DNA of 38,300 bases from an uncultured Candidatus Bathyarchaeia archaeon (GTDB lineage: Archaea > Thermoproteota > Bathyarchaeia > Bathyarchaeales > CAZOCN01). The position numbers and the translations under genes are program-made. Below, piece after piece: positions 1,191-22,513 of this stretch. Position 1 is the stretch's first letter. Every line of letters begins with the position of its first letter. A model generated the notes under the pieces. The model was not told where the DNA came from and did no database searches. It saw only the letters and a list, made by a program, of their open reading frames with translations. The DNA lies in assembly GCA_964578315.1 (NCBI GenBank), contig CAZOCN010000001.1, positions 1 through 38,300 on the forward strand, in the 5' to 3' direction.

Positions 1191-2543
1191 ATGCCGAGGT
1201 TTATTGATCTATTTATGGAAGTACTTAGAGCGAAGAAGACTTCTATGAGAGAGAAACTTGGAATGAAAGAGGACTCTATTATAAATGAAGCACTAAAAGC
1301 AGTCTTCGATAGGAATTGGCACCAGATTCCTCGAGAAGACCTCGAGGAAGTACACGTATTCGCCGTTGATGGTAGCAGGGCGATGAGAGAATATGTTGGA
1401 GGGGCTAGATTTTATGTTACAAGGGCTTTCGGTGTGACGAATAAGGGAGAGAAGGCGAGATTACTGGATAGCGACGTGTTCTATGCTAGAGGGAGAGAGG
1501 AGGAGGTGCAGGGTTACATCTCCCTGAAAACGGAGTTCGTTGAGATGAAACTCGCCTTACAGAACGTGAAGAAGCTCAAGGGAGACTTGAAGTTTATACT
1601 TATTGACGGGTCACTCTATGGAAGGATGTCGCACCTCTTTAGGGAGTTCCCAGTAGACGGAGACTCAGCCTTCTCACTAGATTATATAAAATTATACTCA
1701 GAACTCTTGGAGAAATGCAAAGAGAACAACATTCATCTAGTAGGGGTAAGTAAAGATTCTAGAGCTAATTTTACAAAAACCCTCCTACTCAAAGAACTCT
1801 TTTCTGAAGAACTGAAAGCACTAAAGGAAACATTAACTCCAGAGGAGAGATTAACCCTCTCAAGATGCTTCAAAACCATCAATACAAATCCAAATTTCAC
1901 TTTTGAGAAGTTAACCGAACTGAAGAAGAGGCATGGAAGAGCGTTAGAAAAAATGGAGGCTATACTATTGGAGGCTCGTATCGGTACAGACTTCCAGATG
2001 ATCTCTCATTTCGCTTCTTCTCCGGGATACACGACCCCGGTAGAGCTGGGAGCTCAAGAGCAGGCTATGACGATGCTGAAGAATATTTCACGAAACGCCG
2101 AGGGCTACGTGAGACATAATTTTAAGAACGCCATCGTCGAGAATTATAATCGAAGAGATGAGTTTTTAAGGGAGGCTGTAGAGACAATCCGTCTAATTCT
2201 GAATTTCCCTACTGTGGTATCCTTTCATGTTCTATTCGATCCAAGAGATACTCCAATCCGTGTAGATGTTCCATCTTGGGACGTCGGACTGGATAACACT
2301 ATGAGAGAACTCACCGGAAACCTCCTCCTGTATGAATTTAAGGAGAAGGTTGAAGAGGTTCTCCGACTTTTACTTTCGGGTTATGGGGGACTACGAAACT
2401 ACAATGTTTGGTTGAAATACGCTGATGATATGGTGAAGCTTCATTTACGAGACGTAGATGACATTTATGAGAGAGCCCTAGAAAGAGAGCTTGGCTTTTT
2501 ACTTATTCATACAAGGGGGTATAGGCGTGTACAATACCCGTGA
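1191..2543 (+). CDS. nurA: NurA 5'-3' nuclease
   Basis: The NurA-domain blocks are present: VFAVDGSR, FILIDGSLYGR and LVGVSKDSRA. It is the first gene of a tightly coupled nurA-herA-mre11-rad50 run. An SD-like GGAGAGAG precedes the ATG. Confidence 0.85.
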   Translation: MPRFIDLFMEVLRAKKTSMREKLGMKEDSIINEALKAVFDRNWHQIPREDLEEVHVFAVDGSRAMREYVGGARFYVTRAFGVTNKGEKARLLDSDVFYARGREEEVQGYISLKTEFVEMKLALQNVKKLKGDLKFILIDGSLYGRMSHLFREFPVDGDSAFSLDYIKLYSELLEKCKENNIHLVGVSKDSRANFTKTLLLKELFSEELKALKETLTPEERLTLSRCFKTINTNPNFTFEKLTELKKRHGRALEKMEAILLEARIGTDFQMISHFASSPGYTTPVELGAQEQAMTMLKNISRNAEGYVRHNFKNAIVENYNRRDEFLREAVETIRLILNFPTVVSFHVLFDPRDTPIRVDVPSWDVGLDNTMRELTGNLLLYEFKEKVEEVLRLLLSGYGGLRNYNVWLKYADDMVKLHLRDVDDIYERALERELGFLLIHTRGYRRVQYP

Positions 2544-4152
2544 ATTAAGGACTGTAGGTTTCATCGTTAGTGAGGCAACCTCATCAGAGTTCTTCTTCAT
2601 ATCCAGCCAAGAGGAGTACCCACCTAAATGGGAGTACTTGCTCGTAACCGGAACAGAATACGTAGATGATGCATTACGACCGGTAGAGGTTCTGGCGCAG
2701 GTGGAAAAGGTGATCTCTAAAAGTGATACGTTGACTGAGAGACTTGACGTGGAGCAATTGGAGAGGATGAAGAAGGCGGGAATAGAGGAAGCGCGGGCTG
2801 TAGGAGTGGCCCGTATACTCGGGTATATGGTTGAAGGAGATTCAGGGATGGAAGGGCGTGTCTTGATGCCTAGAAGGGCCATGATCCCTGGTAACCCCGT
2901 GTATATTGCTCCTCAAGAGCTCCTAGAGAGGTTCTTCTCCTTTCCGGAGGAAGAGGGGCTTTATGTAGGAAACCTCATATCTAGACCTGATGTGCCAGTG
3001 AAGCTCTCCGTGGCTGGTTTCCGTCGGCACCTCGCCATAATAGCTCAAACCGGAGCTGGGAAAAGCTACTGCGCAGGCGTTTTAATCGAAGAGCTCCTAG
3101 AGAAGGGGGCCTCCATCCTGGTGATAGACCCTCACGCTGACTATGTATTCCTCTCTTTAACAGATGAAGGTGGGAGATACGAGTATGCTGATAGAGTAAC
3201 CATCTTCAGGAACCCAGCTAGTACAGGTAGGTACGGAGAACAAGATGTGGGAAAACTTCAATCTTACGAGATCTCCTTCCAAAATTTGAGCGAGGACGAA
3301 GTCTGTGACATTGCGGGCATTCTAGAGAGATGGAAGAATCTGCGGGATGCTGTAAGAGAAGCCCTCGAGAGACTGCGTGAGGAGAAGAAGTATTACCAAC
3401 CTGGAGACCTATTGAGGGTTATGGAGGAGCTTTCGGAAGAAAGCGGACGGAAGAGTGAGAGAGGTTACTTCCTTTCAGCTATGAAGTACATACGGAAGTT
3501 GAATAAACTCAGAGTCTTTACGTACCAATCCACACCTATCGCCTCCCTCTTAAAACCGATGCACGTTTCCGTTATCGACTTGTCTGGCTTAGAGGATGTC
3601 AGCATGGACTACATCACTTCACGAATACTAGAAGAAGCCTTCACTACAATCATAAACGGTGAATTTGAATACCCAGTCTTCGTTTTCATAGAAGAAGCCC
3701 ACAGGTTTATACCATATTCGGGCCGCTCCACCTTCAGCACTCCAATCATTAAGAGGATAGCCTCTGAAGGCCGTAAGTTCGGACTCTTCCTTATACTCAT
3801 AACACAGCGTCCATCTAAAATCCATCCGGATAGCCTAAGCCAATGCAATAGTCAAATTATAATGAAATTAACTAACCCCAGCGACCAGAAGGCTGTCTCT
3901 GAAAGCTCGGAGAGGCTTAGCCAAGACTTACTCGATGATCTTCCGGGGTTAAATCCCGGTGAAGCCGTCATAGTAGGTGAAGTAACTAAGACTCCTGTTA
4001 TGGTGAGGGTGAGGAGGAGGAAGACTAGGGAGGGCGGGGCGGATATAGACATAGTTGAGAGATTGAAAGAAGCGAGGAGGACGGTTATACGGGAAGCTAG
4101 TTGGAATGTTGAACGTGAAGAGAAGTTTACAGGAGTCTTTTCGGAGGTCTAG
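2491..4152 (+). CDS. herA: HerA hexameric DNA translocase/helicase (FtsK-HerA superfamily ATPase)
   Basis: It has an N-terminal HAS-barrel-like segment (VGFIVSEATSSEFFFIS), Walker A (AIIAQTGAGKSY), Walker B (VFVFIEEAHRF) and the LILITQRPS block. It overlaps the nurA 3' end. GTG at 2527 sits 6 nt after AAGGGGGT and is a more likely start than TTG 2491. Confidence 0.9.
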   Translation: MAFYLFIQGGIGVYNTRELRTVGFIVSEATSSEFFFISSQEEYPPKWEYLLVTGTEYVDDALRPVEVLAQVEKVISKSDTLTERLDVEQLERMKKAGIEEARAVGVARILGYMVEGDSGMEGRVLMPRRAMIPGNPVYIAPQELLERFFSFPEEEGLYVGNLISRPDVPVKLSVAGFRRHLAIIAQTGAGKSYCAGVLIEELLEKGASILVIDPHADYVFLSLTDEGGRYEYADRVTIFRNPASTGRYGEQDVGKLQSYEISFQNLSEDEVCDIAGILERWKNLRDAVREALERLREEKKYYQPGDLLRVMEELSEESGRKSERGYFLSAMKYIRKLNKLRVFTYQSTPIASLLKPMHVSVIDLSGLEDVSMDYITSRILEEAFTTIINGEFEYPVFVFIEEAHRFIPYSGRSTFSTPIIKRIASEGRKFGLFLILITQRPSKIHPDSLSQCNSQIIMKLTNPSDQKAVSESSERLSQDLLDDLPGLNPGEAVIVGEVTKTPVMVRVRRRKTREGGADIDIVERLKEARRTVIREASWNVEREEKFTGVFSEV

Positions 4153-4155
4153 AAT

Positions 4156-5310
4156 TTGGGGTTACAGGTAGTCCTTACTGCAGATAACCACCTTGACCCT
4201 CCGGCAGTAATGTTCGGTTCTAAAAGGTATGAACGGAAAGGCGACTTCCTCCGTTGCTTTGGGGAGGTTGTAGATTTCGCATTAGAAAACAAGCCGGATA
4301 TCTTTCTGGTCTCCGGAGACTTCTTCGACCATATACAACCTAGGAATCCCACACGTACCAGAATCATGGGTTACTTCAAAAGTCTTTACGACTCTGGAAT
4401 CAAAGTTTTCCTTATCAGCGGACACCACGATACTCCGAAGAGTGCTGAGCAGGGAATGTCCCCTCTAGCTGTCTACGGGAGATCAGGCTACGCCAAATAT
4501 TTCCAAAACTCGACACGATTGGAGTCTGTTTCCTTGGAGATAGATGGGCTAAAAACTATCATCTCAGGGATGAGTTATAATCCGACTTTATCTTGGGATG
4601 AAGACCCCTTAAAGGACGTGAAGTTACCCAAAGTGGGCGACGTCAATATTATGCTACTTCACTATCCGATATCAGGGTTTAAGGGCTATTACGCTAATGA
4701 ACCTAAAGTGCAGCCGGGGTCCATCCCAGCCGACCTTCAACTAGTCGCTGCGGGACATCTCCATTCGTACCAGAGAGAGAAGATCGGCGATGTGGAAGTA
4801 GTATACCCTGGGAGTACGGAGAGGGTGGACTTCTCTGAGGAGGGGGAGGAGAAGGGCTTCGTATGGTTGGAGCTGGATAAGTCTGGCGTAGTCTCAGAAG
4901 AGTTCATCAAAACGCATGCTAGGGAAATGAAGACTCTTGAGTATAAAGTGGAGAAGCGGGGGAAGATAAGCGATTCCCTAAAGAGCGCCCTTTATAAAAT
5001 CAAAGATCCGGAATTGATCCTCCGTGTACGTCTATTAGGGGAAGTCAGCGTCAAGCGTCTGAGCACCTATAGAAGGGCGGACATCCTATCCTTCGCAGAA
5101 GAGCTCTTCTTCACTTTACTCATAGATGAAAGTAGGTTGGAGATCGAGGATTTAGGAGCCCTCGAACCTCTTCCTCAGACTACCCCCTTAAAACAGTTAT
5201 CCTTTTACTTCCAGAAACGGATGGAGAAAGCTGAAAGTATGGAGAAGGCGCTTCTCCGTGAGGCTCTTAGGATCTGTGAGAAGAAGTTGCAGGAGGCTGG
5301 AGGATGGTAA
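4156..5310 (+). CDS. mre11: Mre11 nuclease (calcineurin-like phosphoesterase)
   Basis: The phosphoesterase motifs are present: I LTADNHLD, II VSGDFFD, III ISGHHD (normally GNHD), IV MLLHYP and V AAGHLHS. The TTG start lies 7 nt after GGAGGT and 3 nt after the herA stop. Confidence 0.9.
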   Translation: MGLQVVLTADNHLDPPAVMFGSKRYERKGDFLRCFGEVVDFALENKPDIFLVSGDFFDHIQPRNPTRTRIMGYFKSLYDSGIKVFLISGHHDTPKSAEQGMSPLAVYGRSGYAKYFQNSTRLESVSLEIDGLKTIISGMSYNPTLSWDEDPLKDVKLPKVGDVNIMLLHYPISGFKGYYANEPKVQPGSIPADLQLVAAGHLHSYQREKIGDVEVVYPGSTERVDFSEEGEEKGFVWLELDKSGVVSEEFIKTHAREMKTLEYKVEKRGKISDSLKSALYKIKDPELILRVRLLGEVSVKRLSTYRRADILSFAEELFFTLLIDESRLEIEDLGALEPLPQTTPLKQLSFYFQKRMEKAESMEKALLREALRICEKKLQEAGGW

Positions 5311-7622
5311 AGCTCCTGGAGGTTTACGCTTCTAACTTCAAAAAACCGGTTTTTGATAAGGAACTCCGTATGCCTGAAGGCGTTACCTTGATTTGTGGAC
5401 CGAATGAGAGCGGGAAATCGACGATATTGGACATTATACTCTACGCATTTTATTCGAGGGTGATAAGACCAAGCGCTAGACCCTCCGATGAAGATCTAAT
5501 CACTTATAGAAAGAGACATGCTAAAGTGAGAGTTCGCTTCTTATCGGGAAATAGGGAGCTCCGTGTTGAGAGAGACCTATACTTGAATAAACCGAATAAG
5601 GCTCGGCTTTGGATTAAGAAGGCTGATGGGAAATGGGAAGTAGCAGCTACTGGTCAGAGGCAAGTCACGGAGCAAGTTAAGAGATACTTAGGAGGGGTCT
5701 CCTTTCACGAGATGGTCGCCAGTAACGTAGTCGCCCAGAAGGACCTAGAGCACCTCGTGGAGCAGGGTAGAGAGGATAGAATCAAAGTTGTAAACGCCTT
5801 CATGAACCTTGACTGCTTCAACACAGCCTTGAAGGACTTAAATGAGGAACGAAGAAACCTCGAGGGAACCCATAGTAGACCTGGAAAATTAACTCTGGAA
5901 AGGCAGAAACTCGAAGAGTTACAACGGAGACTCGAAGAGTACAGAGAGAAAGAGAGGGAATTCAAGAAGTTAGAGAAGAGTGTTCAATGGCTTGAAAATG
6001 AAGTTAAGCGAATCGGTGCAGAATTGGAGGAGACAACAAAACTCTACACTTCTCTAGAAGCCTATAAAAAAGCCCGTGATAGGAGAAGGCAGCTGAGCCA
6101 GAATATCGACGCTCAGAAGAAGCTTCTGAGAGAACTTGAGAGCCGCTTGAGGGAGCTTGAAACCGTTGAGAAACGCCTTGAAGAGACGCAGAGAGAACTT
6201 GCCGGGTTCTCTGATCTCGAGAGCGCAGAGAGAGTGTTAATGGAGGTCGAAGAGATGAAGGGGCAAGCCTCACGTTTAACCATCAGAAAGGAGGAGGTTG
6301 GGAAGAGAGTTGAGGAAGTCAGAGGGGCTATAGCTCAGCTGGAAAGAGAGCTTTCAGGTTTCGACAAGAAGAAGATTGAAGGAATCAAGCGGAGGAGGCT
6401 GTTAACGTGGCCGTTGCTTATAGGCGCTGTGATCTGCTTCTTAGCCGCCTTCGTAATGCTGAGTATGAACCTGCCCCAGTTTATGGCAGTCGGAGTGGTC
6501 CTTGTAGGGATTCTCCTCATCGTATCTATGGCATACCAGATCTCTATGGAAACGAAAGCTAGGCTTCTGATCTCCAAGGTTCAATCTTTGGAGGATCATC
6601 AGAAGACTCTTCAGTCGTTAACTGGTGAAATCGAAGCCTTGGAAAGCGATCTCTCCAAGTTAACAGCGGAAGCCCTTGAAAGATGCAGAAGCATACGTCG
6701 CTATGCAGAGTTGATGGAAGGGCGGCGATGGGAGAATCTGGAGGAGGCGGTGAGTCAACTATCACGTCTCCTTGGAAGCGACAAGGAGAAGGTTAACAAC
6801 TTAAAGGAGAGGATGAGAAACCTCAAGTCTCAACTGGAAGGGAAATCCTCTCTTGAAAAGAAAAGAGAGAGATACCTTAAAGAGTTGGAAGAACTCGAGA
6901 AGGAAGCTAAGGGAATAGTCTTTCCAGAGCTCCCTGAAGGAGTAGTCTTCTCAGATGAGGTTTATGAAAAAACTAAAGGGTATAAAAAGGATTTAGAGAG
7001 TAACTTCACTCATAATAAAGCGCTTCTTAATGAACGGAGAACCCGGTTAAAGGAGATCTCGGATTTTCTAGTGAATAATCAGGAGGTTCCTGATAAGGAA
7101 AGGACTCAGAGAGAAGTAGTTGAGAAATTGGAGCGACGTGTTCAAGTTGTTAAGATAGCCATCGAAGCCTTAGAGAAGACTGCAGAGTCCCTACGAGAAC
7201 GCGTAAGGCCGAATGTGGAGAGGTATATGAGCCGCATCCTACCGAGCATAACAAATGGACGCTACCGAGCTGTGCAACTGGATGAGGACTACAACCTTAA
7301 GGTTTGGGATCCAGACGCTGGAGAGTTCAGGGCGAAGGAGGTCTTCTCTGGAGGAACGGAGGATCAGTTCCTCCTTGCCATGAGGCTGGCTTTCGCTTTA
7401 GCGTTGATGCCAGAGTCTAAAGGAACAAGCCCGGAGTTCCTCTTTTTGGACGAGCCTCTGGCGAGCTCTGACGCCGATAGAAGGGAAGGGATTATACGCT
7501 TTATTAAAGAGGATCTCTCCGCCAAGTTCAAGCAGATATTCATCATCAGCCACATCTCGGATCTAGAGAGCGAAGTGGATCACGTCATTCGACTCGAAGA
7601 CGGAAGAATACTCCAATATTAA
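5304..7622 (+). CDS. rad50: Rad50-type SMC-like ATPase, atypical: no zinc hook, central hydrophobic hairpin
   Basis: It has Walker A (GPNESGKST), a Q-loop (VVAQKD), long heptad-rich E/K/R/L arms, the signature motif FSGGTEDQ, Walker B (FLFLDEP) and an H-loop (IISHISD). Its ATG overlaps the mre11 stop (ATGGTAA). None of the four Cys residues forms a CxxC. Confidence 0.85.
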   Translation: MVKLLEVYASNFKKPVFDKELRMPEGVTLICGPNESGKSTILDIILYAFYSRVIRPSARPSDEDLITYRKRHAKVRVRFLSGNRELRVERDLYLNKPNKARLWIKKADGKWEVAATGQRQVTEQVKRYLGGVSFHEMVASNVVAQKDLEHLVEQGREDRIKVVNAFMNLDCFNTALKDLNEERRNLEGTHSRPGKLTLERQKLEELQRRLEEYREKEREFKKLEKSVQWLENEVKRIGAELEETTKLYTSLEAYKKARDRRRQLSQNIDAQKKLLRELESRLRELETVEKRLEETQRELAGFSDLESAERVLMEVEEMKGQASRLTIRKEEVGKRVEEVRGAIAQLERELSGFDKKKIEGIKRRRLLTWPLLIGAVICFLAAFVMLSMNLPQFMAVGVVLVGILLIVSMAYQISMETKARLLISKVQSLEDHQKTLQSLTGEIEALESDLSKLTAEALERCRSIRRYAELMEGRRWENLEEAVSQLSRLLGSDKEKVNNLKERMRNLKSQLEGKSSLEKKRERYLKELEELEKEAKGIVFPELPEGVVFSDEVYEKTKGYKKDLESNFTHNKALLNERRTRLKEISDFLVNNQEVPDKERTQREVVEKLERRVQVVKIAIEALEKTAESLRERVRPNVERYMSRILPSITNGRYRAVQLDEDYNLKVWDPDAGEFRAKEVFSGGTEDQFLLAMRLAFALALMPESKGTSPEFLFLDEPLASSDADRREGIIRFIKEDLSAKFKQIFIISHISDLESEVDHVIRLEDGRILQY

Positions 7623-12048: not shown

Positions 12049-12813
12049 GTGAATGATGTGACGGCTGGTAAAATATCAACGCGGAAGGTGGCTCTATTGG
12101 CTGTTTTTATAGCGCTATCGGCGGTAATAGCGGAGTTTGTTCCAGGCATTCCAATAATTGGGGTCTCAGGCGCCAGTATAAAATTTGATGCTGCCATCGC
12201 GCCTATTTGGGGTCTGATCTTGGGGCCGTATCTTGGGGCGCTGGCTGGTTTCGTGGGAGGCGTGATAGTAGCTAGTAGTCCATTCAGTGTACTAACTTCG
12301 TTAAGTACAGGAGCCTCAGCTTTCGTCGCAGGCGCTTTCACTCAGGAGTATTTTCATTTTGGAAAGCGTAAGGTTAGAGGGTGGATCGTTGCAGCGCTTG
12401 TTCTCGGCTTTCTTATAGCTGGATGGTATGGGACGTGGATCGGGCAGAGAGCTCCTTTCTATCCTTCGCTCCATTTCCTAGGCCTCCTACTTATCCTAGG
12501 CGGAAGAGGGTCGGTAGCTAGATGGTCTAGAGAGAACAGCAAAGGGAAACTTTTACTCGCCGTTCCTCTGGCCAGTTACGCAGGCATAATATCTGATCAT
12601 ATGGTAGGGAATTTAGCCTTCATAACTTCGGTCGGTCTCTTCATTCAAATACCGCCAGAATTGGACCTACCAGCCCTCTTTATGGCCGTTATTCCGATCT
12701 CCGCCGTTGAGAGAGCGGTTCTCACTGCAATAGCTACTCTCATAGGAGTCAGCTTAATTCTCGCTCTCCAAAAAGCGGGACTTTACGTGAGAGACAGAAA
12801 TGGAGAGAACTGA
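12049..12813 (+). CDS. Polytopic membrane protein, ECF-transporter S-component-like (tentative)
   Basis: It has about 6-7 hydrophobic helices. The N-terminal pattern RKVALLAVFIALSAVI...GLILGPYLGALAGFVGG resembles substrate-capture S components. The assignment is by pattern only. Confidence 0.45.
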   Translation: MNDVTAGKISTRKVALLAVFIALSAVIAEFVPGIPIIGVSGASIKFDAAIAPIWGLILGPYLGALAGFVGGVIVASSPFSVLTSLSTGASAFVAGAFTQEYFHFGKRKVRGWIVAALVLGFLIAGWYGTWIGQRAPFYPSLHFLGLLLILGGRGSVARWSRENSKGKLLLAVPLASYAGIISDHMVGNLAFITSVGLFIQIPPELDLPALFMAVIPISAVERAVLTAIATLIGVSLILALQKAGLYVRDRNGEN

Positions 12814-12864
12814 AGAGAACAGCCCTTACGGATTCAGTTGCATCTTTAGATTGGAGGGTAATTT

Positions 12865-13878
12865 TTGTTTGTTGAAGCGCGAGAAGGAGATCTCATAGAG
12901 GTCTCTGAGGGAGCTTTATTCGACGTAAAGGGACTCGTCCATCCACCTCGTAGGGTAGTTGCATTCATCCGTTACTACCCCAATTCAAGAGGGGAGAGAC
13001 TTAAAGGAGGAGTTAGATTCAGTAAAGTCTACAGCCTCTCTAAACGGTACAACCTCCTAAAGGAGAAGTTTCCGCAGTACCTCGTTTACGATTCTGTTTT
13101 TGATGAGTGGTTATGCGAGGTCCCCCACAAGGATGTTGTAAAGCATTATAGACCTACGGAGTATTTACGAGAGTTAAGAGGGTCTGATGAACTAGATCCC
13201 ATAGAGAGTCTAGCTGTGGATTTAGCGGAGACCCTAAAAGAAGAGGCGAGGATTCCTTGGAGTGCTTTGGGAGTCTCCGGTTCAATACTCTCGGGCATCC
13301 ACAACAGAAAATCCGATTTAGATCTAGTGGTCTACGGATCGGATAACTGTCGGAGGGTATACGCCGCTCTCCTCGATCTAACTGAAAGGGGAAGAATGTT
13401 GAAGAGGTATGATATAGATGGTTTAAGAAGGCTTTACGCCTTCAGAGCGAAGGACAGTAAGGCGAGTTTTGAGGAGTTTTTGAAGACTGAGACTAGGAAA
13501 GTAATGCAGGGAATTTACCAGAATAGAGACTACTTCTTGCGTTTCGTTAAAGACTGGGGGGAAGTGGACGAGGAGTATGGAAGTATTAGATATAGAAGGC
13601 GAGGGCGTGCAAGATTGAAGGCGAGGATTGCGGATGATTCTGAGTCCATCTTTACTCCATGCAGATACCGAATCGATGAAGTAGATTTCATTGAGGGAGT
13701 GAAGGTAGAGCCTCTAGTGGAAATAGCCTCCTTCAGGGGGAGGTTCTGCGAGCAAGCGAGGGTGGATGAGTGGGTTATTGCTGAGGGCAAGGTTGAGATG
13801 GTACAGAGACTTAACGGGGAAGTCTACTATAGATTGCTCCTCGGAAACAGCCCCTTGGACCAGATGATACGTGCTTAG
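12865..13878 (+). CDS. Uncharacterised Pol-beta-superfamily nucleotidyltransferase with C-terminal OB-like domain, paralog 1
   Basis: The NTase motif LGVSGSILSGIHNRKSDLDLVVYG lies at 13270..13338. It shares an N-terminal block (EGALFDVKGLVHPPRR...KFPQY) and a C-terminal block (GRARLKARIADDSESIFTPCRYRIDE...EGKVE...YYRLLLG) with the next two genes. The TTG start lies 6 nt after GGAGGG. Confidence 0.7.
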   Translation: MFVEAREGDLIEVSEGALFDVKGLVHPPRRVVAFIRYYPNSRGERLKGGVRFSKVYSLSKRYNLLKEKFPQYLVYDSVFDEWLCEVPHKDVVKHYRPTEYLRELRGSDELDPIESLAVDLAETLKEEARIPWSALGVSGSILSGIHNRKSDLDLVVYGSDNCRRVYAALLDLTERGRMLKRYDIDGLRRLYAFRAKDSKASFEEFLKTETRKVMQGIYQNRDYFLRFVKDWGEVDEEYGSIRYRRRGRARLKARIADDSESIFTPCRYRIDEVDFIEGVKVEPLVEIASFRGRFCEQARVDEWVIAEGKVEMVQRLNGEVYYRLLLGNSPLDQMIRA

Positions 13879-14942
13879 CTCTTTACCACCTTTAATGTTT
13901 GCTCGTAGTATCGAGGACCATAAGATAGGGTTACTTGATAATAATTCTCCTTCGGAGCTTCAACTTTCTCCAGATGCCCCTCGACGTATACTGTCTCGTC
14001 CCGCCGTGCCTGCATTCTGAACTCCTCAACATAGGAGATGATTCTCCGAAGTTCTCCTCTAAAACCTGGGAAGTCTAGGGGTTCTATTTTGTATATGGAT
14101 GGAATGAAAGGAGCCTCTTCATCATCTATTATCCGGGCTCTCCCCTTTATCCATCCAACTTCACGTATCCTCATATCAGAGGAGTACTCATTCCGGATCT
14201 CGCCCCACTCTTTAACGGGTTCAAACTCGGTCTTTACAGTTCGCCCAGTTGCCTTGTCCCTGTAAAGGCCGTAGATCAATTTCCTTCTCTGGTGCCAGAT
14301 GTATTCTTTAACAGTTAAATTCTTGAACCTCCAATGCTTTCCCTCCATAACTCTCTCCTCCTCGAATTCGTTGCGTAAAGGCGTACTCTCCGCGTAGAAG
14401 TCTCTAAGAGCCTCTAGTAGTTTATCTAACCTCTCCTTTCCGTAGACTATTAGATCAAGGTCTGAGAAGGCTGGATGGTGGAAGCCGTGTAAGATGGAGC
14501 CGAAAACGCCTAGAGAGGACCCCGGAATACCAGCGTTGGATGTTACTAGGCGGTACAGGCTCTGTAAAGCCGCTATGAGAGGATCTTCTGCCTCCTGTTG
14601 GATCAGGTGGTTTAATCTCTCCTCGGGTTTAAGGGTCTTCCATATCTGGGATTCGCGGATTCCTACGAGAGACCTCTGGAGAGGCTCGTAAAATATTGTG
14701 TATTGGGGATACTTCTCTTTAACGAATCGGAGGCCCTCATCGGCGTAGAACTTGTAGTAAAGGAGGCCTCTCCCCTTCCTAATCGCTCGGGGGTCCTCCG
14801 TTCTGTAAATCTTAGAGGAGGCGTATTCCACATCGCAAATATAGGCTCTAGGAGGATGAAAGTACCCATATACCCTGAAGATCAAGCCTTCCCTAGTTAA
14901 TACGGTGTCTCTGTCCCTCAACCTCATCTTTAGAACTCTCAA
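13875..14942 (-). CDS. Uncharacterised Pol-beta-superfamily nucleotidyltransferase with C-terminal OB-like domain, paralog 2
   Basis: The NTase motif LGVFGSILHGFHHPAFSDLDLIVYG lies at 14439..14510. It has the same N-terminal block (REGLIFRVYGYFHPPR...KYPQY) and C-terminal block (GRARIIDDEEAPFIPSIYKIE...EGHLE...YYQVTL). ATG at 14927 is the likely start. Its stop overlaps the stop of paralog 1 (cTTAg). Confidence 0.7.
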   Translation of the reverse strand: MRVLKMRLRDRDTVLTREGLIFRVYGYFHPPRAYICDVEYASSKIYRTEDPRAIRKGRGLLYYKFYADEGLRFVKEKYPQYTIFYEPLQRSLVGIRESQIWKTLKPEERLNHLIQQEAEDPLIAALQSLYRLVTSNAGIPGSSLGVFGSILHGFHHPAFSDLDLIVYGKERLDKLLEALRDFYAESTPLRNEFEEERVMEGKHWRFKNLTVKEYIWHQRRKLIYGLYRDKATGRTVKTEFEPVKEWGEIRNEYSSDMRIREVGWIKGRARIIDDEEAPFIPSIYKIEPLDFPGFRGELRRIISYVEEFRMQARRDETVYVEGHLEKVEAPKENYYQVTLSYGPRYYEQTLKVVKS

Positions 14943-14960
14943 GGTTTACGCTTTAAGAAC

Positions 14961-14990
14961 CTATTCCTTATTTTAATGTTTTTAACTTTC
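14961..14990. promoter_or_regulatory. AT-rich bidirectional promoter region between NTase paralogs 2 and 3
   Basis: The only AT-rich tract (CTTATTTTAATGTTTTTAAC) in the divergent spacer carries TATA-like octamers on both strands, about 30-45 nt from either coding start. Confidence 0.4.
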
Positions 14991-15101
14991 ATCTTAGGAG
15001 GGGATTAGGGGACGGAGAGAGGATTCAGAGACCGAGATTTCATAAGAACCAAGGAAGGCTTTTTCTTCTGTGTAGTCGGTTCTCTTCATCCGCCTGATCG
15101 G

Positions 15102-16061
15102 GTGATCTCTTACGTAAAGTACATCCCTGCCGTCAAGGGCCGTTGGTTTTACCGGGGTACTCCTTTGAAGAGAGTCCTAAAGAGCTATACTATACCAAGT
15201 CTCCTAGAGACTTTCACTCTTCTTAAGGAGGAGTCTCCGCATTATACGTTCCACTCGGAAGTTTACGGAATAGAGATGAGTGCTGTTCCGCGAGATTACA
15301 TCTCCAAACATTACTTGCCAGAGGAGAAGTTGAAGGCTATCTTCCGCCTACCCAAACCTGATAGGCTACAGAAGGTAATCATCGAATTAGTCTCCCTATT
15401 ATCTGTGAGGAGTGGAATACCGATCTCAGAGTTTGGGATAACCGGCTCCGTACTCCTAGAGATCCACAATCCCGAATTCTCAGATATCGACCTCACAGTC
15501 TATGGTAGAGAGAATAGTGCGCTTTTGAAGAAGACCCTTAGAGAGGAGAGCATAGGGCGTCTAGAGGGGAAGGAACTTAAGGATTGGTGTAAACGTAAAA
15601 CTGAAAGATACCCAATTACACTTAAGGAGGCACTGATTATTTACAGAAGGAAATGGAACATCGGAAAGTTTGAGGGCGTAAACTTTTCTCTTCATCCTGT
15701 AAAAACAGAAGAAGAGCTAGAAGAGAAATATGGCGATAAGATTTATAGAGCTTTAGGTGAAGTCACTATTGGCGCAACAGTCTCTGAAGATCTAGACAGT
15801 ATGTTCCTACCTGCGGTCTATAAGGTTGAAGACGTCGATATTACTCGAGGAGAAGCTATCGGCGACATCAAAGAAGTGGTTTCCTATGAGAGCCTTTACG
15901 CGGATATAGCCACAGAAGGGGAGAGGATCAAGGTGCGAGGGAAACTTGAGGAGGTAACGGAGAAGAAGAGCGGTAAGGTTTACTACAGGGTCCTCGTCGG
16001 CTCCCCTCAGGGGAAGGGAAGAGAATACATAAAACCTATATCAGACCGAGTTTTCAGTTGA
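15102..16061 (+). CDS. Uncharacterised Pol-beta-superfamily nucleotidyltransferase with C-terminal OB-like domain, paralog 3
   Basis: The NTase motif FGITGSVLLEIHNPEFSDIDLTVYG lies at 15435..15506. The C-terminal block is GEVTIGATVSEDLDSMFLPAVYKVED...RGKLE...YYRVLVG. Coordinates are from the first canonical start (GTG). Family-conserved sequence FRDRDFIRTKEGFFFCVVGSLHPPDR continues in-frame upstream to 15009 (see finding). Confidence 0.7.
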   Translation: MISYVKYIPAVKGRWFYRGTPLKRVLKSYTIPSLLETFTLLKEESPHYTFHSEVYGIEMSAVPRDYISKHYLPEEKLKAIFRLPKPDRLQKVIIELVSLLSVRSGIPISEFGITGSVLLEIHNPEFSDIDLTVYGRENSALLKKTLREESIGRLEGKELKDWCKRKTERYPITLKEALIIYRRKWNIGKFEGVNFSLHPVKTEEELEEKYGDKIYRALGEVTIGATVSEDLDSMFLPAVYKVEDVDITRGEAIGDIKEVVSYESLYADIATEGERIKVRGKLEEVTEKKSGKVYYRVLVGSPQGKGREYIKPISDRVFS

Positions 16062-16082
16062 ATCATAAAAAGGTAGAAAGTT

Positions 16083-18818
16083 ATGTATGAGCGGCCTAGA
16101 CCGTCCCTTTGGAGATTCCTCTGGATTCTTATCCTAATCATTGCACTTGCAGTCCTCTTCACTTCTTTATCGATATACATAAACTGGACGGTCACCGCTT
16201 CTATGTACGAAGATAAAGCCGGGATAGACTGGTTCGGAACAGTCTTTTATTACAATTGGACTTTCATCCTCGCCGCTATACTCGCCCTTCTCGTTATCAA
16301 CCCCTTACCGGGGAGAAGCGATCTCTATGGCATTATAGAGGCCTTCACAGAGTTCAGAGCACGGTATGTAGAGGAGGAAGGAATCCGGCCAGTTTTCTCT
16401 TTTAGGAAAAGAAGGCTAATTTGGGGGTTTTGGCAGTTCTTCAAATGGACTATAGCTTACGCGGTTATAGTCTCAACAAATGGAATCCCTACTGTAGGTC
16501 CTTTCACGCAGACATTCTACATGGCGTTGAAGGGAATTGGCGATTGGGGTCTACTCCCTAGAATTTTCTTGACGCCGTTACTCCCTCCATCCAGTGAGGA
16601 ACTGGTGAAGTTGATGCCCTCTATGGAAATTCAGTATTGGATAGTTTATTCTCTAGTACGCGTCGTCCTCACGATAATAGTAGTTAGATTTCTGCTTAAG
16701 CTGATAAAGTCATTCCTGTATGAAGAGAAGGGACTATGGATCAGAAACATCTTTGTCATGCTCACAGCCATAATGCTGACGGTAATATTTGGAGCCCCCT
16801 ACTGGAGAATGGACGTAACAACCCCTTACGTCTATAACATCTGCATCGCACTTTTCATAGCCTTCTTCATAATCTCGCTCAGCGCACATCTAGGGCACAT
16901 AGGAGTTAACTTATCTTTCGCAAAAAGGAAGAGACTACTATTCGCATCGGTCTCCCTCTTACTGATAGTCTTGATGATAAACACAGCCTTCATAGTGGGC
17001 TTCTGGGTAAACTGGAATAACAACTACATCCAATATGAGTGGGAGCCATTCTTAAGTAAACAGATTTATGTCACAAGATGGGCGGCAGGGATAAAGGATG
17101 TAAAGGAGGTTCCCATATCTGAGCTTCCAACTGGTAACGTAACTAAGATCGTCAATAAAGTTAGACAGTGGGATCAAACCGCTGCGTACACGAAGATGAA
17201 GAATCAGATAGGTGTGAACTGGATGACCCTCGCCGACTCTGATATTATCTATTTAAAGGGGAGGGAGTTCTGGGTTGCTCCCACAACCATCTCTTATCCA
17301 CGCACAGACTGGATAAGCACTCACCTAATCTATACACACGCTTCTAAGATCATAATCGTAGATAGCCATACTGGAGAGTTCGTAGGTATAAAAGAGGCTT
17401 TCGGGCTCCCAAAGGAGCCACTCATATACTACGGAGAAGGCTTCAGAAACAACGTCTACGTTAATGTAAAGGGCTTTGATGAGATAGGGAACGTCACGTA
17501 CCCCGACAAGCCGGATTACGTACTTTCAGGATGGCAAAGAATGTTATGGTTTTTGATGGATGGACAGTTAGGCTTCGCCTTCACTCCTCCTCAAGAGGAT
17601 ATAAACATGCTCTACAATAGGGATGTCATCAATAGAGTAAAAACGGTGCTCATAAGTGGTCTCAAACCAGACTCGGATACCTACATAGTAACCGATGGGA
17701 AAAGGGTTTACTACGCTGTCCAAGTTCTGATAGATTATCCCATGCATTCCGGTTTCGCCGCGAGTAATTACCTCCGCTATTTTGCAGTAGTTCTCGTAGA
17801 TATCGAGAACGGATCTATGCAGGGTTACGCTATCTCTGAACCCGACAACTTCCTTTCCTCCTTCTATAGAGAGTACTACCCAAGCTGGAATAACCCTCCA
17901 CCAGACTGGCTTATCCCTCAACTGAGATATCCGGAGGCCTTGCTGGGCAAAAGACAGGAGCCGGGGCAACTAGATGTAGATTTCAAGTATCATGTAAATG
18001 ACCCCTTCATCTGGAGGTCGGGCTCAGACTTTTATGAGAGGCCTGAATCCACTGAAGTTCACTACATTCTAATGACCGAAGATGACATAACGCGCTTCAT
18101 AGGTCTACAACTTGTGGAGTTTGAGGTCTCTCCGGGAAAGAATTTAGCTGGGATGTACATCGCTTATAGCGGAGAAAAACTTGGAGAGCTATATCTTTAC
18201 CACGTGGTGAACTCCACTTCGCAATACATAGGACCTAGAGCCGCTCTGCAAGCCCTTGAAACAGACGACGCTGTCAGAGAGCAGTTGACCTTCATAAAGA
18301 ATTACAGACACGGGAACATCCTTCTTTACTCAATAGGGGGGGAACTGTACTATTTCATACCGATCTACGTGATAACCGAGCAGGCTGGCGGAGTTATCAC
18401 TAAACTTGCCTTTATCGTCACCATAGATGCCGCCACTGGAACAAAAGTAGCTATGGGAGAAAACTCAGCCTCAGCTTACTACACCCTTGTCGGCGGGACA
18501 CCTGTAGTGCAACCCGGCGTAAAAGACAGGTTAAATAAAACCATGAACCTCTTCTTGCATTCTGGCTTAAAACTTATTAAACCATCCAAAATCAGCGGCA
18601 ACGTGGAGATATTGGTAGCCAACCTCACCTACACCAAGGAGGCTCAATGGGATGAGACGAAATCCGTGTTAACCTCTTTCATTGAAGATTACGTGAAAGC
18701 GGAGGGGAAAAGGGAGGTTTACTATTGGATTTCAGAAGGGAACAAAATAAACTTCGGCATTTTACTCTCGGAGGAAAATATAGTAAAACTTTACTATATC
18801 TCAGTAAGATACCTCTAA
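16083..18818 (+). CDS. UPF0182 (COG1615) family large membrane protein
   Basis: It has seven N-terminal hydrophobic helices followed by a soluble domain of about 600 aa. The C-terminal blocks LRYPEALL, YHVNDPFIW, NLAGMYIA, IGPRAALQALETDDAVREQLT and GNILLYSIGGELYYFIPIYV match my recollection of UPF0182 consensus blocks. Confidence 0.75.
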   Translation: MYERPRPSLWRFLWILILIIALAVLFTSLSIYINWTVTASMYEDKAGIDWFGTVFYYNWTFILAAILALLVINPLPGRSDLYGIIEAFTEFRARYVEEEGIRPVFSFRKRRLIWGFWQFFKWTIAYAVIVSTNGIPTVGPFTQTFYMALKGIGDWGLLPRIFLTPLLPPSSEELVKLMPSMEIQYWIVYSLVRVVLTIIVVRFLLKLIKSFLYEEKGLWIRNIFVMLTAIMLTVIFGAPYWRMDVTTPYVYNICIALFIAFFIISLSAHLGHIGVNLSFAKRKRLLFASVSLLLIVLMINTAFIVGFWVNWNNNYIQYEWEPFLSKQIYVTRWAAGIKDVKEVPISELPTGNVTKIVNKVRQWDQTAAYTKMKNQIGVNWMTLADSDIIYLKGREFWVAPTTISYPRTDWISTHLIYTHASKIIIVDSHTGEFVGIKEAFGLPKEPLIYYGEGFRNNVYVNVKGFDEIGNVTYPDKPDYVLSGWQRMLWFLMDGQLGFAFTPPQEDINMLYNRDVINRVKTVLISGLKPDSDTYIVTDGKRVYYAVQVLIDYPMHSGFAASNYLRYFAVVLVDIENGSMQGYAISEPDNFLSSFYREYYPSWNNPPPDWLIPQLRYPEALLGKRQEPGQLDVDFKYHVNDPFIWRSGSDFYERPESTEVHYILMTEDDITRFIGLQLVEFEVSPGKNLAGMYIAYSGEKLGELYLYHVVNSTSQYIGPRAALQALETDDAVREQLTFIKNYRHGNILLYSIGGELYYFIPIYVITEQAGGVITKLAFIVTIDAATGTKVAMGENSASAYYTLVGGTPVVQPGVKDRLNKTMNLFLHSGLKLIKPSKISGNVEILVANLTYTKEAQWDETKSVLTSFIEDYVKAEGKREVYYWISEGNKINFGILLSEENIVKLYYISVRYL

Positions 18819-20641: not shown

Positions 20642-22513
20642 CTAATTGAGTGTACGCATTAAGGCTCTCGGCAATTCGTTGAAGTCTTTAACATAAGAGT
20701 ATTTGCCTCTGCTGGCTTTAGCTAAGCGTTTACAGGTGGTGAAGCTACCGCCTCCAATACCCATGGGAACTTGAACTACATGTAATCTGGGGTACTTCCC
20801 AGCTGTATTAATTGGGTCCGCTCCTTTCGTAACCCAACCATCTGTCACAAGTATGCCTACACGTTCATGAGCGTTGACCTTCCTCAACTCTTCGAGGCCT
20901 ACTCTGAGAGCTTCTTCTATATTTGTAGCTCCTTTAGGTTGGATATCCAGCATCTTCCCTATCAACGCCTCTATAGAAGACTCTTCCGTGGCAGTTTTCA
21001 AAATTTTAGGGTGGTCGTTGAAGGTGATAACGCAGTAATGATCATCACGGAGTTTGTGAGCTAACACGCCTACCGCTAGAGTTGCGATGACTATCTTCTC
21101 TAGTTGCATAGAGTTGCTCACATCTAACATGAGAGAGACTGCGCTCTTCTTTCTCTGACGTTCAATAGAGATCAAATCCGCCGAGTCTGGAAGGCTCTTT
21201 CCGAGCATGTTCTCTAAAGTTTGGTCAATATCAAATTCCTCTAATCCAGGTTTGAAGGGAACGCTCACTTGCCTTGTGGCGCTTAAACCTCTACCAGATA
21301 TCTGAGCTGCAAGGCGCATTATCATGCGAGTCAATATCCGTTTAGCTGTTCTTCTACGCTTCGGGTCCAAACCAGACCTGAGGAGGAATAGAAGCTGAGC
21401 GGCCATCCAGCTGGACGGAGACCGCTCTGCCATCATCAACATCTTCTCGAAGAGACCCTCCTCAGAGAGAAGGTCGCTAATCGATTTCGGATTTGAGCGG
21501 AGTTGCCCCATTAAAGTGGAGACGTCTCCTCGCTCTATAGATGTTTTGAGCCTTCTAATGGTCTCCGACTCTTCTTTTTCAACGGATGAGCCAGAGAATA
21601 GAGAGGCGACTCTCCTCTCTCCATTTTTATTCTTGTAATTCTCCAAGACGGAGGCGACTATTCCTCGCACTATCTCTTCCATGTTCTTCGCCGTTTGATC
21701 TTGAAGCTCTATCTTTGTTGCTAAGGCGGCCGTGGCTACTTTAGTCCAGAGGTCTAGGTCTGGCTTGAAAGTAGAAGTGAAGTTTCTGATGAGGTCTACC
21801 ATATCTATGGCTCCTCGGACTGATGAGCCTCTGCGAATATCTGGATGCTTCCTTGTTTCCCTCGCGATTCTGACTGCCACAGTTAATGTATCCCTATCTC
21901 TACAATTCGTCTCCTTCTCGACTATCAGTATCTCCTCATTTTCAGGTTGATAATCGAGGCGTATCCATACAAAACGGTCTCGAAGAGCTTCGCTTAGGCG
22001 ACTGGTTCCAACGAATTCCTCTGGATTCTGAGTTGCTATTATGAGGAAACCGGGTTTAGCCTTGATCGTCCCTATCTTTGGAATAATAATCTGTCTTTCA
22101 TCCATGGCTGGAAGGAGGACATTTTGAGTTCCTTCCGGCATCCTGTTAAGTTCATTTATGAATAGGAAGGCTCCTTCAAGCATGGCTTGAGTCAGCGGAC
22201 CCGGAATGAAGGACTCCCAACTGTAACCTTTCTCTATAACTAAGGGAGGATCAAACCATCCCGTGAGTTTATGCTCGGTATACCTCTCGTCGCCATCAAC
22301 CCTGAAGAAGCTCCTATTGAGGTGTCTGGCTATGGACAGAGCGATTATGGTTTTTCCGACTCCAACCACACCCTCAAAGAGGATGTGTTTCCCAGCCTTC
22401 GCCGCCGCCAGAGCCCGAAGAAGCTCTCCGTCCCTCCCGATAATCTTGAAACGTTCCTTTATAACTTTCACATCTTCTTCCATAAACGTCACTCTTTCAA
22501 TTCTCCAATTCAT
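20642..22513 (-). CDS. Fused MoxR-class AAA+ ATPase (AAA_5, CoxD/NorQ/CbbQ-like) and CoxE-like von Willebrand factor A domain
   Basis: The N-terminal part has Walker A (GVVGVGKT), Walker B region (AFLFINELNR), QNVLLPAMDE and IATQNPEE. The C-terminal part has the VWA MIDAS motif LMLDVSNSM and ILVTDG. A helical linker of about 200 aa joins the two. Confidence 0.8.
   Translation of the reverse strand: MNWRIERVTFMEEDVKVIKERFKIIGRDGELLRALAAAKAGKHILFEGVVGVGKTIIALSIARHLNRSFFRVDGDERYTEHKLTGWFDPPLVIEKGYSWESFIPGPLTQAMLEGAFLFINELNRMPEGTQNVLLPAMDERQIIIPKIGTIKAKPGFLIIATQNPEEFVGTSRLSEALRDRFVWIRLDYQPENEEILIVEKETNCRDRDTLTVAVRIARETRKHPDIRRGSSVRGAIDMVDLIRNFTSTFKPDLDLWTKVATAALATKIELQDQTAKNMEEIVRGIVASVLENYKNKNGERRVASLFSGSSVEKEESETIRRLKTSIERGDVSTLMGQLRSNPKSISDLLSEEGLFEKMLMMAERSPSSWMAAQLLFLLRSGLDPKRRRTAKRILTRMIMRLAAQISGRGLSATRQVSVPFKPGLEEFDIDQTLENMLGKSLPDSADLISIERQRKKSAVSLMLDVSNSMQLEKIVIATLAVGVLAHKLRDDHYCVITFNDHPKILKTATEESSIEALIGKMLDIQPKGATNIEEALRVGLEELRKVNAHERVGILVTDGWVTKGADPINTAGKYPRLHVVQVPMGIGGGSFTTCKRLAKASRGKYSYVKDFNELPRALMRTLN

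Follow-up and report, generated by a model that had tools for sequence, protein, structure and literature searches.

A Rad50-family ATPase of a Bathyarchaeia NurA-HerA-Mre11-Rad50 operon with a predicted membrane hairpin in place of the zinc hook

Introduction

The CxxC zinc hook is regarded as the hallmark of Rad50 and SbcC, and the joining of the coiled-coil apex is deemed essential for the sensing and processing of DNA ends. Through the hook, two Rad50 arms normally form a closed ring or rod, or two complexes are bridged. In bacterial SbcCD and eukaryotic Mre11-Rad50 a Mre11 dimer comes with two Rad50 subunits, and the joint is a zinc ion held by the CxxC motifs of two protomers. Here we analyse a NurA-HerA-Mre11-Rad50 operon in a stretch of 38,300 nucleotides (hereafter the window) from an uncultured Candidatus Bathyarchaeia archaeon (assembly GCA_964578315.1, contig CAZOCN010000001.1, positions 1 to 38,300). 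Its last gene encodes a Rad50-like protein whose arms would likewise have to be joined at the apex, but which belongs to a family without a conserved cysteine. Two hydrophobic helices lie at its coiled-coil tip and very probably form a membrane hairpin.

By analogy of architecture, the closest studied counterpart of this protein is Bacillus subtilis SbcE (YhaN) with its partner SbcF. SbcE has an SbcC/Rad50-like head, long heptad arms and no CxxC (Krishnamurthy et al., 2010; PMC2811018). Its 'unique central domain', described as rich in hydrophobic residues, containing a conserved proline and insoluble when expressed alone, was not called transmembrane; the protein is paired with the Mre11/SbcD-like nuclease SbcF (YhaO) and has roles in break repair and transformation (PMC2811018). 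The window protein is like SbcE in its central hydrophobic domain, the lack of CxxC and the nuclease partner, whereas SbcE is bacterial and comes without HerA-NurA. A second hook-less relative is LmuB of the short Lamassu systems, a Rad50/SbcC-derived ATPase that has lost the CxxC and is assumed to dimerise in another way. It is a defence protein with LmuA and LmuC as partners, short arms and no reported membrane segment, whereas the window protein retains Mre11, HerA and NurA. Hook loss as such and the hydrophobic domain of SbcE were therefore already known, and what is new here is the predicted membrane-hairpin apex in an archaeal Rad50 and in its clan. We found no description in the literature of a membrane-hairpin archaeal Rad50 or of this clan, although the ABC-ATPase classification of Krishnan et al. 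(2020) could mention the clade.

Results

A Rad50-family protein with two hydrophobic helices at mid-protein

Both sequence and fold relate the product of the last operon gene to Rad50. It matched the Pfam families SMC_N, AAA_23 and SbcC_Walker_B, its best NCBIfam match was archaeal Rad50 (PRK03918, 3e-42), its best matches among PDB sequences by phmmer were the Rad50 proteins of P. furiosus (1e-17) and M. jannaschii, and the best Foldseek matches of its AlphaFold2 model were the Rad50 structures 7zr1, 3auy and 3qku. The motifs of the split ATP-binding cassette (ABC) ATPase head are all intact, from Walker A (GPNESGKS 32) and the Q-loop (Q145) to the signature (SGGT 682), Walker B (FLFLDE 712), the D-loop (DEPLASSD 716) and H750, and they are invariant over the 27 homologs of alignment A1. 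AlphaFold2, run on a 27-sequence alignment with a mean predicted local distance difference test (pLDDT) of 81, placed a long antiparallel coiled coil between the two head lobes, built of long helices at residues 195-349 and 393-649. The start codon (ATG) of the gene overlaps the stop of mre11 by 7 nt. The protein resembles the canonical archaeal Rad50s of P. furiosus, M. jannaschii and Sulfolobus in its split head, its antiparallel coiled coil, its translationally coupled Mre11 neighbour and its four-gene operon, as well as in its best matches.

It differs from them in several respects. The score against PRK03918 is 144.5 bits, compared with a cutoff of 700, and none of the archaeal Rad50 equivalog models (PRK03918, PRK02224, Rad50_Halo and Rad50_Sulf) reached its cutoff. 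The ABC signature is SGGT, the head falls into a separate clan (see below), and the arms are shorter, the apex lying about 220 residues beyond the Q-loop compared with about 300 in P. furiosus Rad50. The main difference is at the apex, where the CxxC zinc hook is replaced by a two-helix hydrophobic hairpin. The protein agrees with Rad50/SbcC in all tested features other than the hook, but it also stays below the equivalog thresholds. We therefore assign it to a distinct hairpin-apex clan of Rad50-family ATPases and do not regard it as an ortholog of the characterised archaeal Rad50s.

The hairpin lies exactly at mid-protein, where residues 366-412 (window 6399-6539) read LLTWPLLIGAVICFLAAFVMLSM-NLPQ-FMAVGVVLVGILLIVSMAYQ. 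Residues 366-415 form a 50-residue stretch without D, E, K or R in a protein of which the rest is 38% charged; the chance of such a stretch over all start positions is about 2e-8, and the next longest one has 9 residues. Kyte-Doolittle hydropathy in a 19-residue window peaks at 2.48 in the first helix and 2.56 in the second, and is nowhere above 1.1 outside residues 355-420. Summed on the Hessa scale, the apparent insertion energy (dGapp) of residues 366-388 amounts to -1.13 kcal/mol and that of residues 393-411 to -1.70, while the best 19-mer elsewhere in the protein has +8.6. Both flanks are basic, with charges of +7/-2 in 15 residues on the N-terminal side (GIKRRR) and +3/-2 on the C-terminal side (ETKAR). 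In the AlphaFold2 model, residues 368-387 form a helix and residues 388-392 a turn, and a helix spanning residues 393-462 runs straight into the descending arm. The predicted form, two apolar helices of about 20 residues joined by a short turn and flanked in the positive-inside manner, is that of an integral-membrane helical hairpin. The protein has four cysteines, C31 (LICGP), C171 (LDCF), C378 (VICF) and C461 (ERCR), none of them in a CxxC; C378 belongs to a face of small residues on helix 1 (G374-x3-C378-x3-A382). Judged on architecture alone, a membrane-hairpin apex in place of the zinc hook is very probable.

These results bear on an earlier reading of the same stretch, made from its letters alone (the original prediction). 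Its description of a rad50 start overlapping the mre11 stop, of normal head motifs, of four cysteines outside any CxxC, of two uncharged hydrophobic stretches at mid-protein (here residues 366-411) and of basic flanks was accurate throughout. It was also right that the turn is short, but the turn has four residues (NLPQ) and not the three (NLP) it had counted. Its reading of the two stretches as membrane-inserted is favoured by two independent hydrophobicity scales, Kyte-Doolittle and Hessa, which both predict two inserting helices.

The descending arm contains a conserved non-helical break, with the consensus F/L-P-x-L-P-x-G-x-x-F-S over 27 sequences, in which P541 and L543 are invariant and P544 and S550 reach at least 90%. 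The ascending arm carries the invariant residues L251 and Y254 (window 6054-6065) at a similar distance from the hairpin. The break may be a family-specific joint, an elbow or a docking site.

The hairpin is conserved in related archaea

All of the nearest 40 full-length homologs, with 31-95% identity and lengths of 746-808 aa, carry the mid-protein hairpin and lack a CxxC; those with names come from Bathyarchaeia, Caldarchaeum and Njordarchaeia. The same pattern holds for the nearest 44 of 44 matches, and among 102 matches overall we found either the mid-protein hairpin or a CPxC hook, never both together. No cysteine is conserved family-wide; several members lack cysteine altogether. The alignment shows that the position, length and apolar character of the hairpin are constant while its sequence drifts. 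The members of the closest clade have in common WPxxxGxxxCxxxAF within helix 1 and, behind helix 2, RQxSxES. In 85 sequences an uncharged core of 35-50 residues lies at a relative position of 0.50 between two net-positive flanks, and its turn is short and free of charge.

Scanning a single genome for each GTDB species, we obtained 59 loci, which belong to Bathyarchaeia, Thermofilaceae/Infirmifilum/Thermofilum, Thorarchaeota, Baldrarchaeota, a 'Promethearchaeati' metagenome-assembled genome (MAG), several 'Nitrososphaer-' MAGs and a few bacteria. Where their Rad50-like open reading frames (ORFs) extend to mid-protein, nearly all of these show the hairpin and lack a CxxC at that place. Mre11 is encoded directly upstream of this transmembrane-type (TM-type) Rad50 in essentially all archaeal loci with enough contig to tell, and the full NurA-HerA-Mre11-Rad50 order is present in 18 loci. 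At least one bacterial locus, L058 (Binatia), has an overlapping Mre11/SbcD-like gene upstream.

A misassembly, a frameshift or a chimeric join could in principle have put hydrophobic sequence where a hook apex belongs. The ORF is uninterrupted, an independent ENA assembly encodes a 95%-identical protein with an identical hairpin, and 59 species genomes and at least 140 protein clusters, from independent projects, share this architecture. Since the hairpin is conserved across independent assemblies, we exclude such an artefact, whose probability we consider negligible.

Several loci of the scan differ from the window in their surroundings. In the soil Bathyarchaeota loci L006-L015, L021, L026, L030, L035 and L045, Mre11 and the TM-type Rad50 are adjacent and no NurA-HerA lies within 10 kb upstream; five of these loci have a divergent upstream ORF of 160 aa with four transmembrane segments. 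In the Thorarchaeota operon locus L047, an ORF of about 1650 aa with weak HerA similarity (1e-12) lies a few kb downstream (12747-17699, minus strand).

The hairpin marks the apex of a large clan that is distinct in its head domains

To delimit the family we ran an exhaustive phmmer search of the window protein against 1.84 billion 50%-identity representatives, which gave 7867 matches at E<=1e-3 and 313 at E<=1e-30. Among the best 150 representatives (down to 4e-39), the mid-protein hairpin was found in 140 and a CxxC in none; the other ten are nine fragments and P0241 (987 aa), which has an uncharged core of 22 residues by a looser test. Lengths in the clan range from about 600 to 1700 aa, so that many of its members are of bacterial size. 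In a set of 37 diverse members of the clan, all NCBIfam Rad50/SbcC matches were sub-threshold, and 31 proteins matched the YhaN-type head family, Pfam AAA_27, at E<0.001. No curated model covers the clan, and its members are presently annotated merely as 'AAA family ATPase' or 'SMC family ATPase'. By its distribution in sequence searches, the hairpin apex is the defining trait of a large clade that includes several archaeal phyla and bacteria. Mycobacterial Rv1277/Rv1278 was considered as a possible studied member of the clan and dropped, as the papers on it offered nothing of use.

The position of the hairpin was examined in 176 proteins of 600-1700 aa. The distances from Walker A to the hairpin (244-708 residues) and from the hairpin to Walker B are correlated with r=0.94, and those on the two sides of the CxxC in 88 hook-type proteins with r=0.91. 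As the lengths before and after it covary, the hairpin is at the coiled-coil apex.

The same proteins bear on the nature of the two helices. Instead of inserting into a membrane, they could bury against those of a second protomer in a soluble four-helix bundle, a metal-free dimeriser in place of the hook. The simple helix-turn-helix of the AlphaFold model would fit such a bundle and the conserved small-residue face of helix 1 would suit helix packing; short Lamassu LmuB offers a precedent for hook loss with alternative dimerisation, and the central domain of SbcE was reported merely as insoluble and not as membrane-bound (PMC2811018). Soluble bundles, however, need amphipathic helices, whereas the core is free of charge over 35-50 residues in the roughly 85 archaeal members and over a median of 42 residues in the 176 proteins of the wider clan. 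The negative dGapp of both helices, the free drift of a sequence that keeps its hydrophobicity and length, as lipid-facing helices do, and the basic residues that bracket both ends in a positive-inside pattern also speak against a soluble apex, which we consider improbable.

The relation between the hairpin and hook types was assessed by a neighbour-joining tree of 228 proteins, unrooted and distance-based, that used head domains only (the first 170 and the last 165 residues) so that hairpin and coiled-coil composition could exert no influence. A single split placed 172 of 175 hairpin proteins on one side and all 51 hook-type proteins on the other, together with one unclassified protein and three divergent YhaN-like hairpin proteins (P0081, P0096 and P0097). 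That exact split was recovered in 0/100 bootstrap replicates because the three YhaN-like sequences move about. When support was instead counted as every main-clan hairpin protein falling into a single clan without hook types, the 58 main-clan hairpin proteins of a thinned set held together in 89/100 bootstraps. What the head-only tree shows is the separation of the hairpin clan from the hook types by head sequence, not the ancestral state.

The window protein scores below the Pfam AAA_27 gathering threshold (18.2 vs 22 bits), and the YhaN-annotated proteins P0092, P0096 and P0097 are farther from it than the hook-type Rad50s are; P0092, which is not among the three proteins on the hook side, matches it with just 2e-8. 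Homologs of the AAA_27/YhaN-type protein P0096 have the mid-protein hairpin in 114 of 114 full-length cases; they come from Dormibacterota where named, a few being YhaN entries labelled by the Joint Genome Institute (JGI). The search with P0096, itself from Dormibacterota, returned no Bacillus protein. The hairpin of SbcE may be either homologous to or convergent with that of the clan.

The original prediction had placed its hydrophobic hairpin where the hook should be and had called for flanking arms of matching length, which the AlphaFold2 model and the length covariation bear out. It had left to further analysis whether the hook is replaced in relatives and whether a misassembly or an indel was to blame. 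Close orthologs from several phyla all carry the hairpin and lack the hook, and the agreement of orthologs in independent assemblies from these phyla rules out the latter. The parallel to YhaN/SbcE that it raised is real, as SbcE lacks a CxxC and its central domain was described as hydrophobic and insoluble. It was correct in that the hook is replaced, with the refinement that the change is not confined to the apex of an otherwise ordinary archaeal Rad50: the protein belongs to a large clan with distinct heads that is shared with bacteria.

Hook-type relatives are also encoded next to Mre11. P0074, P0053, P0059 and P0080 (loci L060-L069) are about 810-830 aa long, have a CPTC hook and are encoded downstream of a Mre11 gene. 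The three genes upstream in these loci (about 345, 685 and 325 aa) have no Pfam match and are not recognisable as NurA or HerA, and a GNAT acetyltransferase gene always follows.

The operon and its surroundings

The four genes of the operon (window 1191-7622) are contiguous on the plus strand, each overlapping or abutting its neighbour; their coordinates and the parts of the Rad50-like protein are collected in Table 1. Mre11 has all its nuclease motifs (DNH10, GDFFD54, GHHD89, LLH167 and GHLH200). The herA product matched NCBIfam helicase_HerA with 2e-68, under the equivalog cutoff, and all four operon proteins are far below the NCBI equivalog cutoffs. The listed herA start, a TTG at 2491, lies 53 nt inside nurA (2491-2543); since the overlap with nurA is only about 17 nt in related loci, the true start is probably further downstream.

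Table 1. Coordinates, in the window, of the operon genes and of the parts of the Rad50-like protein.
Feature	Position	Strand	Size or residues	Basis and remarks
nurA	1191..2543	+	450 aa	Operon gene 1; Pfam NurA PF09376, 1.8e-13; precedes HerA in 18 related loci
herA	2491..4152	+	up to 553 aa	Pfam DUF87/HerA central domain, 2.1e-40; operon conservation
mre11	4156..5310	+	384 aa	Nuclease partner; Pfam Metallophos, 1.3e-12; NCBIfam Mre11_Sulfo, 7.6e-23
rad50-like ABC ATPase, predicted membrane hairpin at coiled-coil apex	5304..7622	+	772 aa	Pfam, NCBIfam, PDB sequence and fold matches
N-terminal ATPase lobe	5304..5873	+	residues ~1-190	Walker A, Q-loop; alignment A1 columns, motif scan, secondary structure
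Ascending coiled-coil arm	5886..6398	+	residues ~195-365	AlphaFold helices 195-300, 305-349; ends in basic GIKRRR
Hydrophobic helix 1	6399..6467	+	residues 366-388	LLTWPLLIGAVICFLAAFVMLSM
Turn NLPQ	6468..6479	+	residues 389-392	4 residues, predicted to face outside; short and uncharged family-wide
Hydrophobic helix 2	6480..6536	+	residues 393-411	FMAVGVVLVGILLIVSMAY; runs on into descending arm
Descending coiled-coil arm	6537..7250	+	residues ~412-649	AlphaFold helices 393-462, 479-511, 514-536, 551-591, 595-649
Conserved non-helical break FPELPEGVVFS in descending arm	6921..6953	+	residues 540-550	Helix interrupted at 537-550 in model
C-terminal ATPase lobe	7251..7619	+	residues ~650-772	Signature, Walker B, D-loop, H750; Pfam SbcC_Walker_B

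The surroundings of the operon in the window are housekeeping genes: PAC2, Hsp20, deoxyhypusine synthase, aIF5A, NAD kinase, an ECF S-component, glutamine synthetase, XPD and aldehyde:ferredoxin oxidoreductase. These neighbours led us to reject a defence island or mobile element as the setting of the operon, and no pilus, secretion or defence genes were found in the window neighbourhood. Flanking genes are kept only among closely related soil Bathyarchaeota.

This context bears on a reading that accepts the whole architecture and differs in the role of the protein. It could be a specialised paralogue: general break repair would be left to a hook-type Mre11-Rad50 kept elsewhere, and the membrane version would act, in recombination-coupled import or defence, on DNA crossing or touching the membrane, namely DNA entering by uptake or conjugation, or the ends of injected viral or plasmid DNA. 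The clan is separate from hook-type Rad50 in head sequence and is shared with bacteria, as an old paralogue would be; hook-type NurA-HerA-Mre11-Rad50 operons are present in other Thermoproteota MAGs; and the scores of all four operon proteins below the canonical equivalog models also fit. Bacillus has both SbcC and SbcE, of which SbcE acts in transformation and is located at competence poles (PMC2811018). In Thermoproteales, herA and rad50 genes are found together with the Ced/Ted DNA-import loci. On the other side are the housekeeping neighbourhood, with its lack of pilus, secretion and defence genes, the absence of any extra gene conserved alongside the operon and the fact that the TM-type gene fills the standard four-gene operon in Thermofilaceae. 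In hyperthermophiles the NurA-HerA-Mre11-Rad50 operon is reported to be the essential end-resection system, which also counts against a specialised paralogue. Nor was a genome found that has both Rad50 types, although this is a weak test. We regard a specialised paralogue as possible but rather unlikely.

Further ORFs of the window are of note. Two convergent paralogous ORFs at 12865-13878 (plus strand) and 13875-14942 (minus strand), with overlapping tails and no Pfam match, encode 337 and 355 aa; both products have the motif G-S-I-L-x-G...SDLDL-V/I-VYG, which resembles that of polymerase-beta-type nucleotidyltransferases. The adjoining plus-strand ORFs at 15102-16061 (319 aa) and 16083-18818 (911 aa) matched no Pfam family at E<=1e-5. 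At 20642-22513 (minus strand), an AAA_5/MoxR-like ATPase is fused to a C-terminal VWA domain (623 aa).

Discussion

Sequence anatomy, conservation, clan separation and operon context are what the analysis shows directly, and from them we infer how the protein may work: that the hairpin inserts and with which topology, that the membrane closes the ring, and what the complex does in the cell. The most likely reading, which we hold with moderate confidence as one joint picture, is that the gene product is a functional Rad50-family ATPase, the partner of the Mre11 encoded directly upstream, and that its hairpin anchors Mre11-Rad50 to the cytoplasmic membrane and takes over the ring-closing or tethering role of the hook. 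The tip of the antiparallel coiled coil would be a hairpin of about 45 residues, made of two hydrophobic helices and without a CxxC zinc hook, that inserts into the cytoplasmic membrane from inside, so that arms and head stay cytoplasmic and the four-residue turn alone is exposed outside. As both arms return to one head, a geometry with both arms inside would be forced, and such an in-in topology agrees with the net-positive flanks (positive-inside) and the short uncharged turn across the 85 sequences. The Mre11-Rad50 head would be kept no farther from the inner membrane face than roughly one arm length (a few tens of nanometres), and HerA-NurA, because of the operon coupling, would probably be tethered alongside. 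Two arms in the same bilayer would be topologically closed already, because DNA cannot pass through the membrane. In the closest clade the GxxxCxxxA face of helix 1 could in addition pack two hairpins into a four-helix membrane bundle. Such a complex would recognise and resect DNA ends at the cell periphery.

Several points weigh against this picture. The local pLDDT at the hairpin is just 53-65. Some family members have an uncharged core of just 35-38 residues, which may dip into the bilayer instead of spanning it, especially in tetraether membranes. The conserved cysteine and the GxxxCxxxA face of helix 1 are confined to the closest clade, so that a common dimerisation motif is not established. 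No fifth gene or membrane-protein partner conserved with the operon was found across lineages. Since all four operon proteins are far under the equivalog cutoffs, their function may also have diverged from canonical double-strand break repair.

These genomes may also encode a hook-type Rad50 beside the membrane-hairpin protein. A search seeded with a hook-type Rad50 of Desulfurococcaceae gave 48 matches, few of them named and none from Thermofilum, Bathyarchaeia or Caldarchaeum, and well-known Rad50s were missing from it too. The contigs of five hook-type proteins shared no whole-genome shotgun (WGS) prefix with the 59 TM-type loci, again a weak test. We put forward only tentatively that the membrane-hairpin protein could be the one Rad50 of Bathyarchaeia, Thermofilaceae, Caldarchaeales and some Asgard groups, so that the essential Mre11-Rad50-HerA-NurA resection machine would be permanently tethered to the membrane, with the bilayer in place of the hook closing the Rad50 ring or holding broken ends.

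With a hairpin clade sitting in the standard archaeal recombination operon, the purpose of the apex can be studied in a natural experiment. If two arms in one bilayer suffice, the essential property of the apex would be ring closure and not zinc chemistry. The hairpin also offers a structural reading of the unexplained central domain of SbcE in the genetically tractable B. subtilis. If true, the membrane-anchor picture would make the cell envelope the site of end resection in some Asgard lineages and in archaea that are abundant and mostly uncultured. Should the protein be their sole Rad50, the zinc hook would not be universally required for Mre11-Rad50 function, and break repair, or its coupling to incoming DNA, would be organised at the membrane in these organisms.

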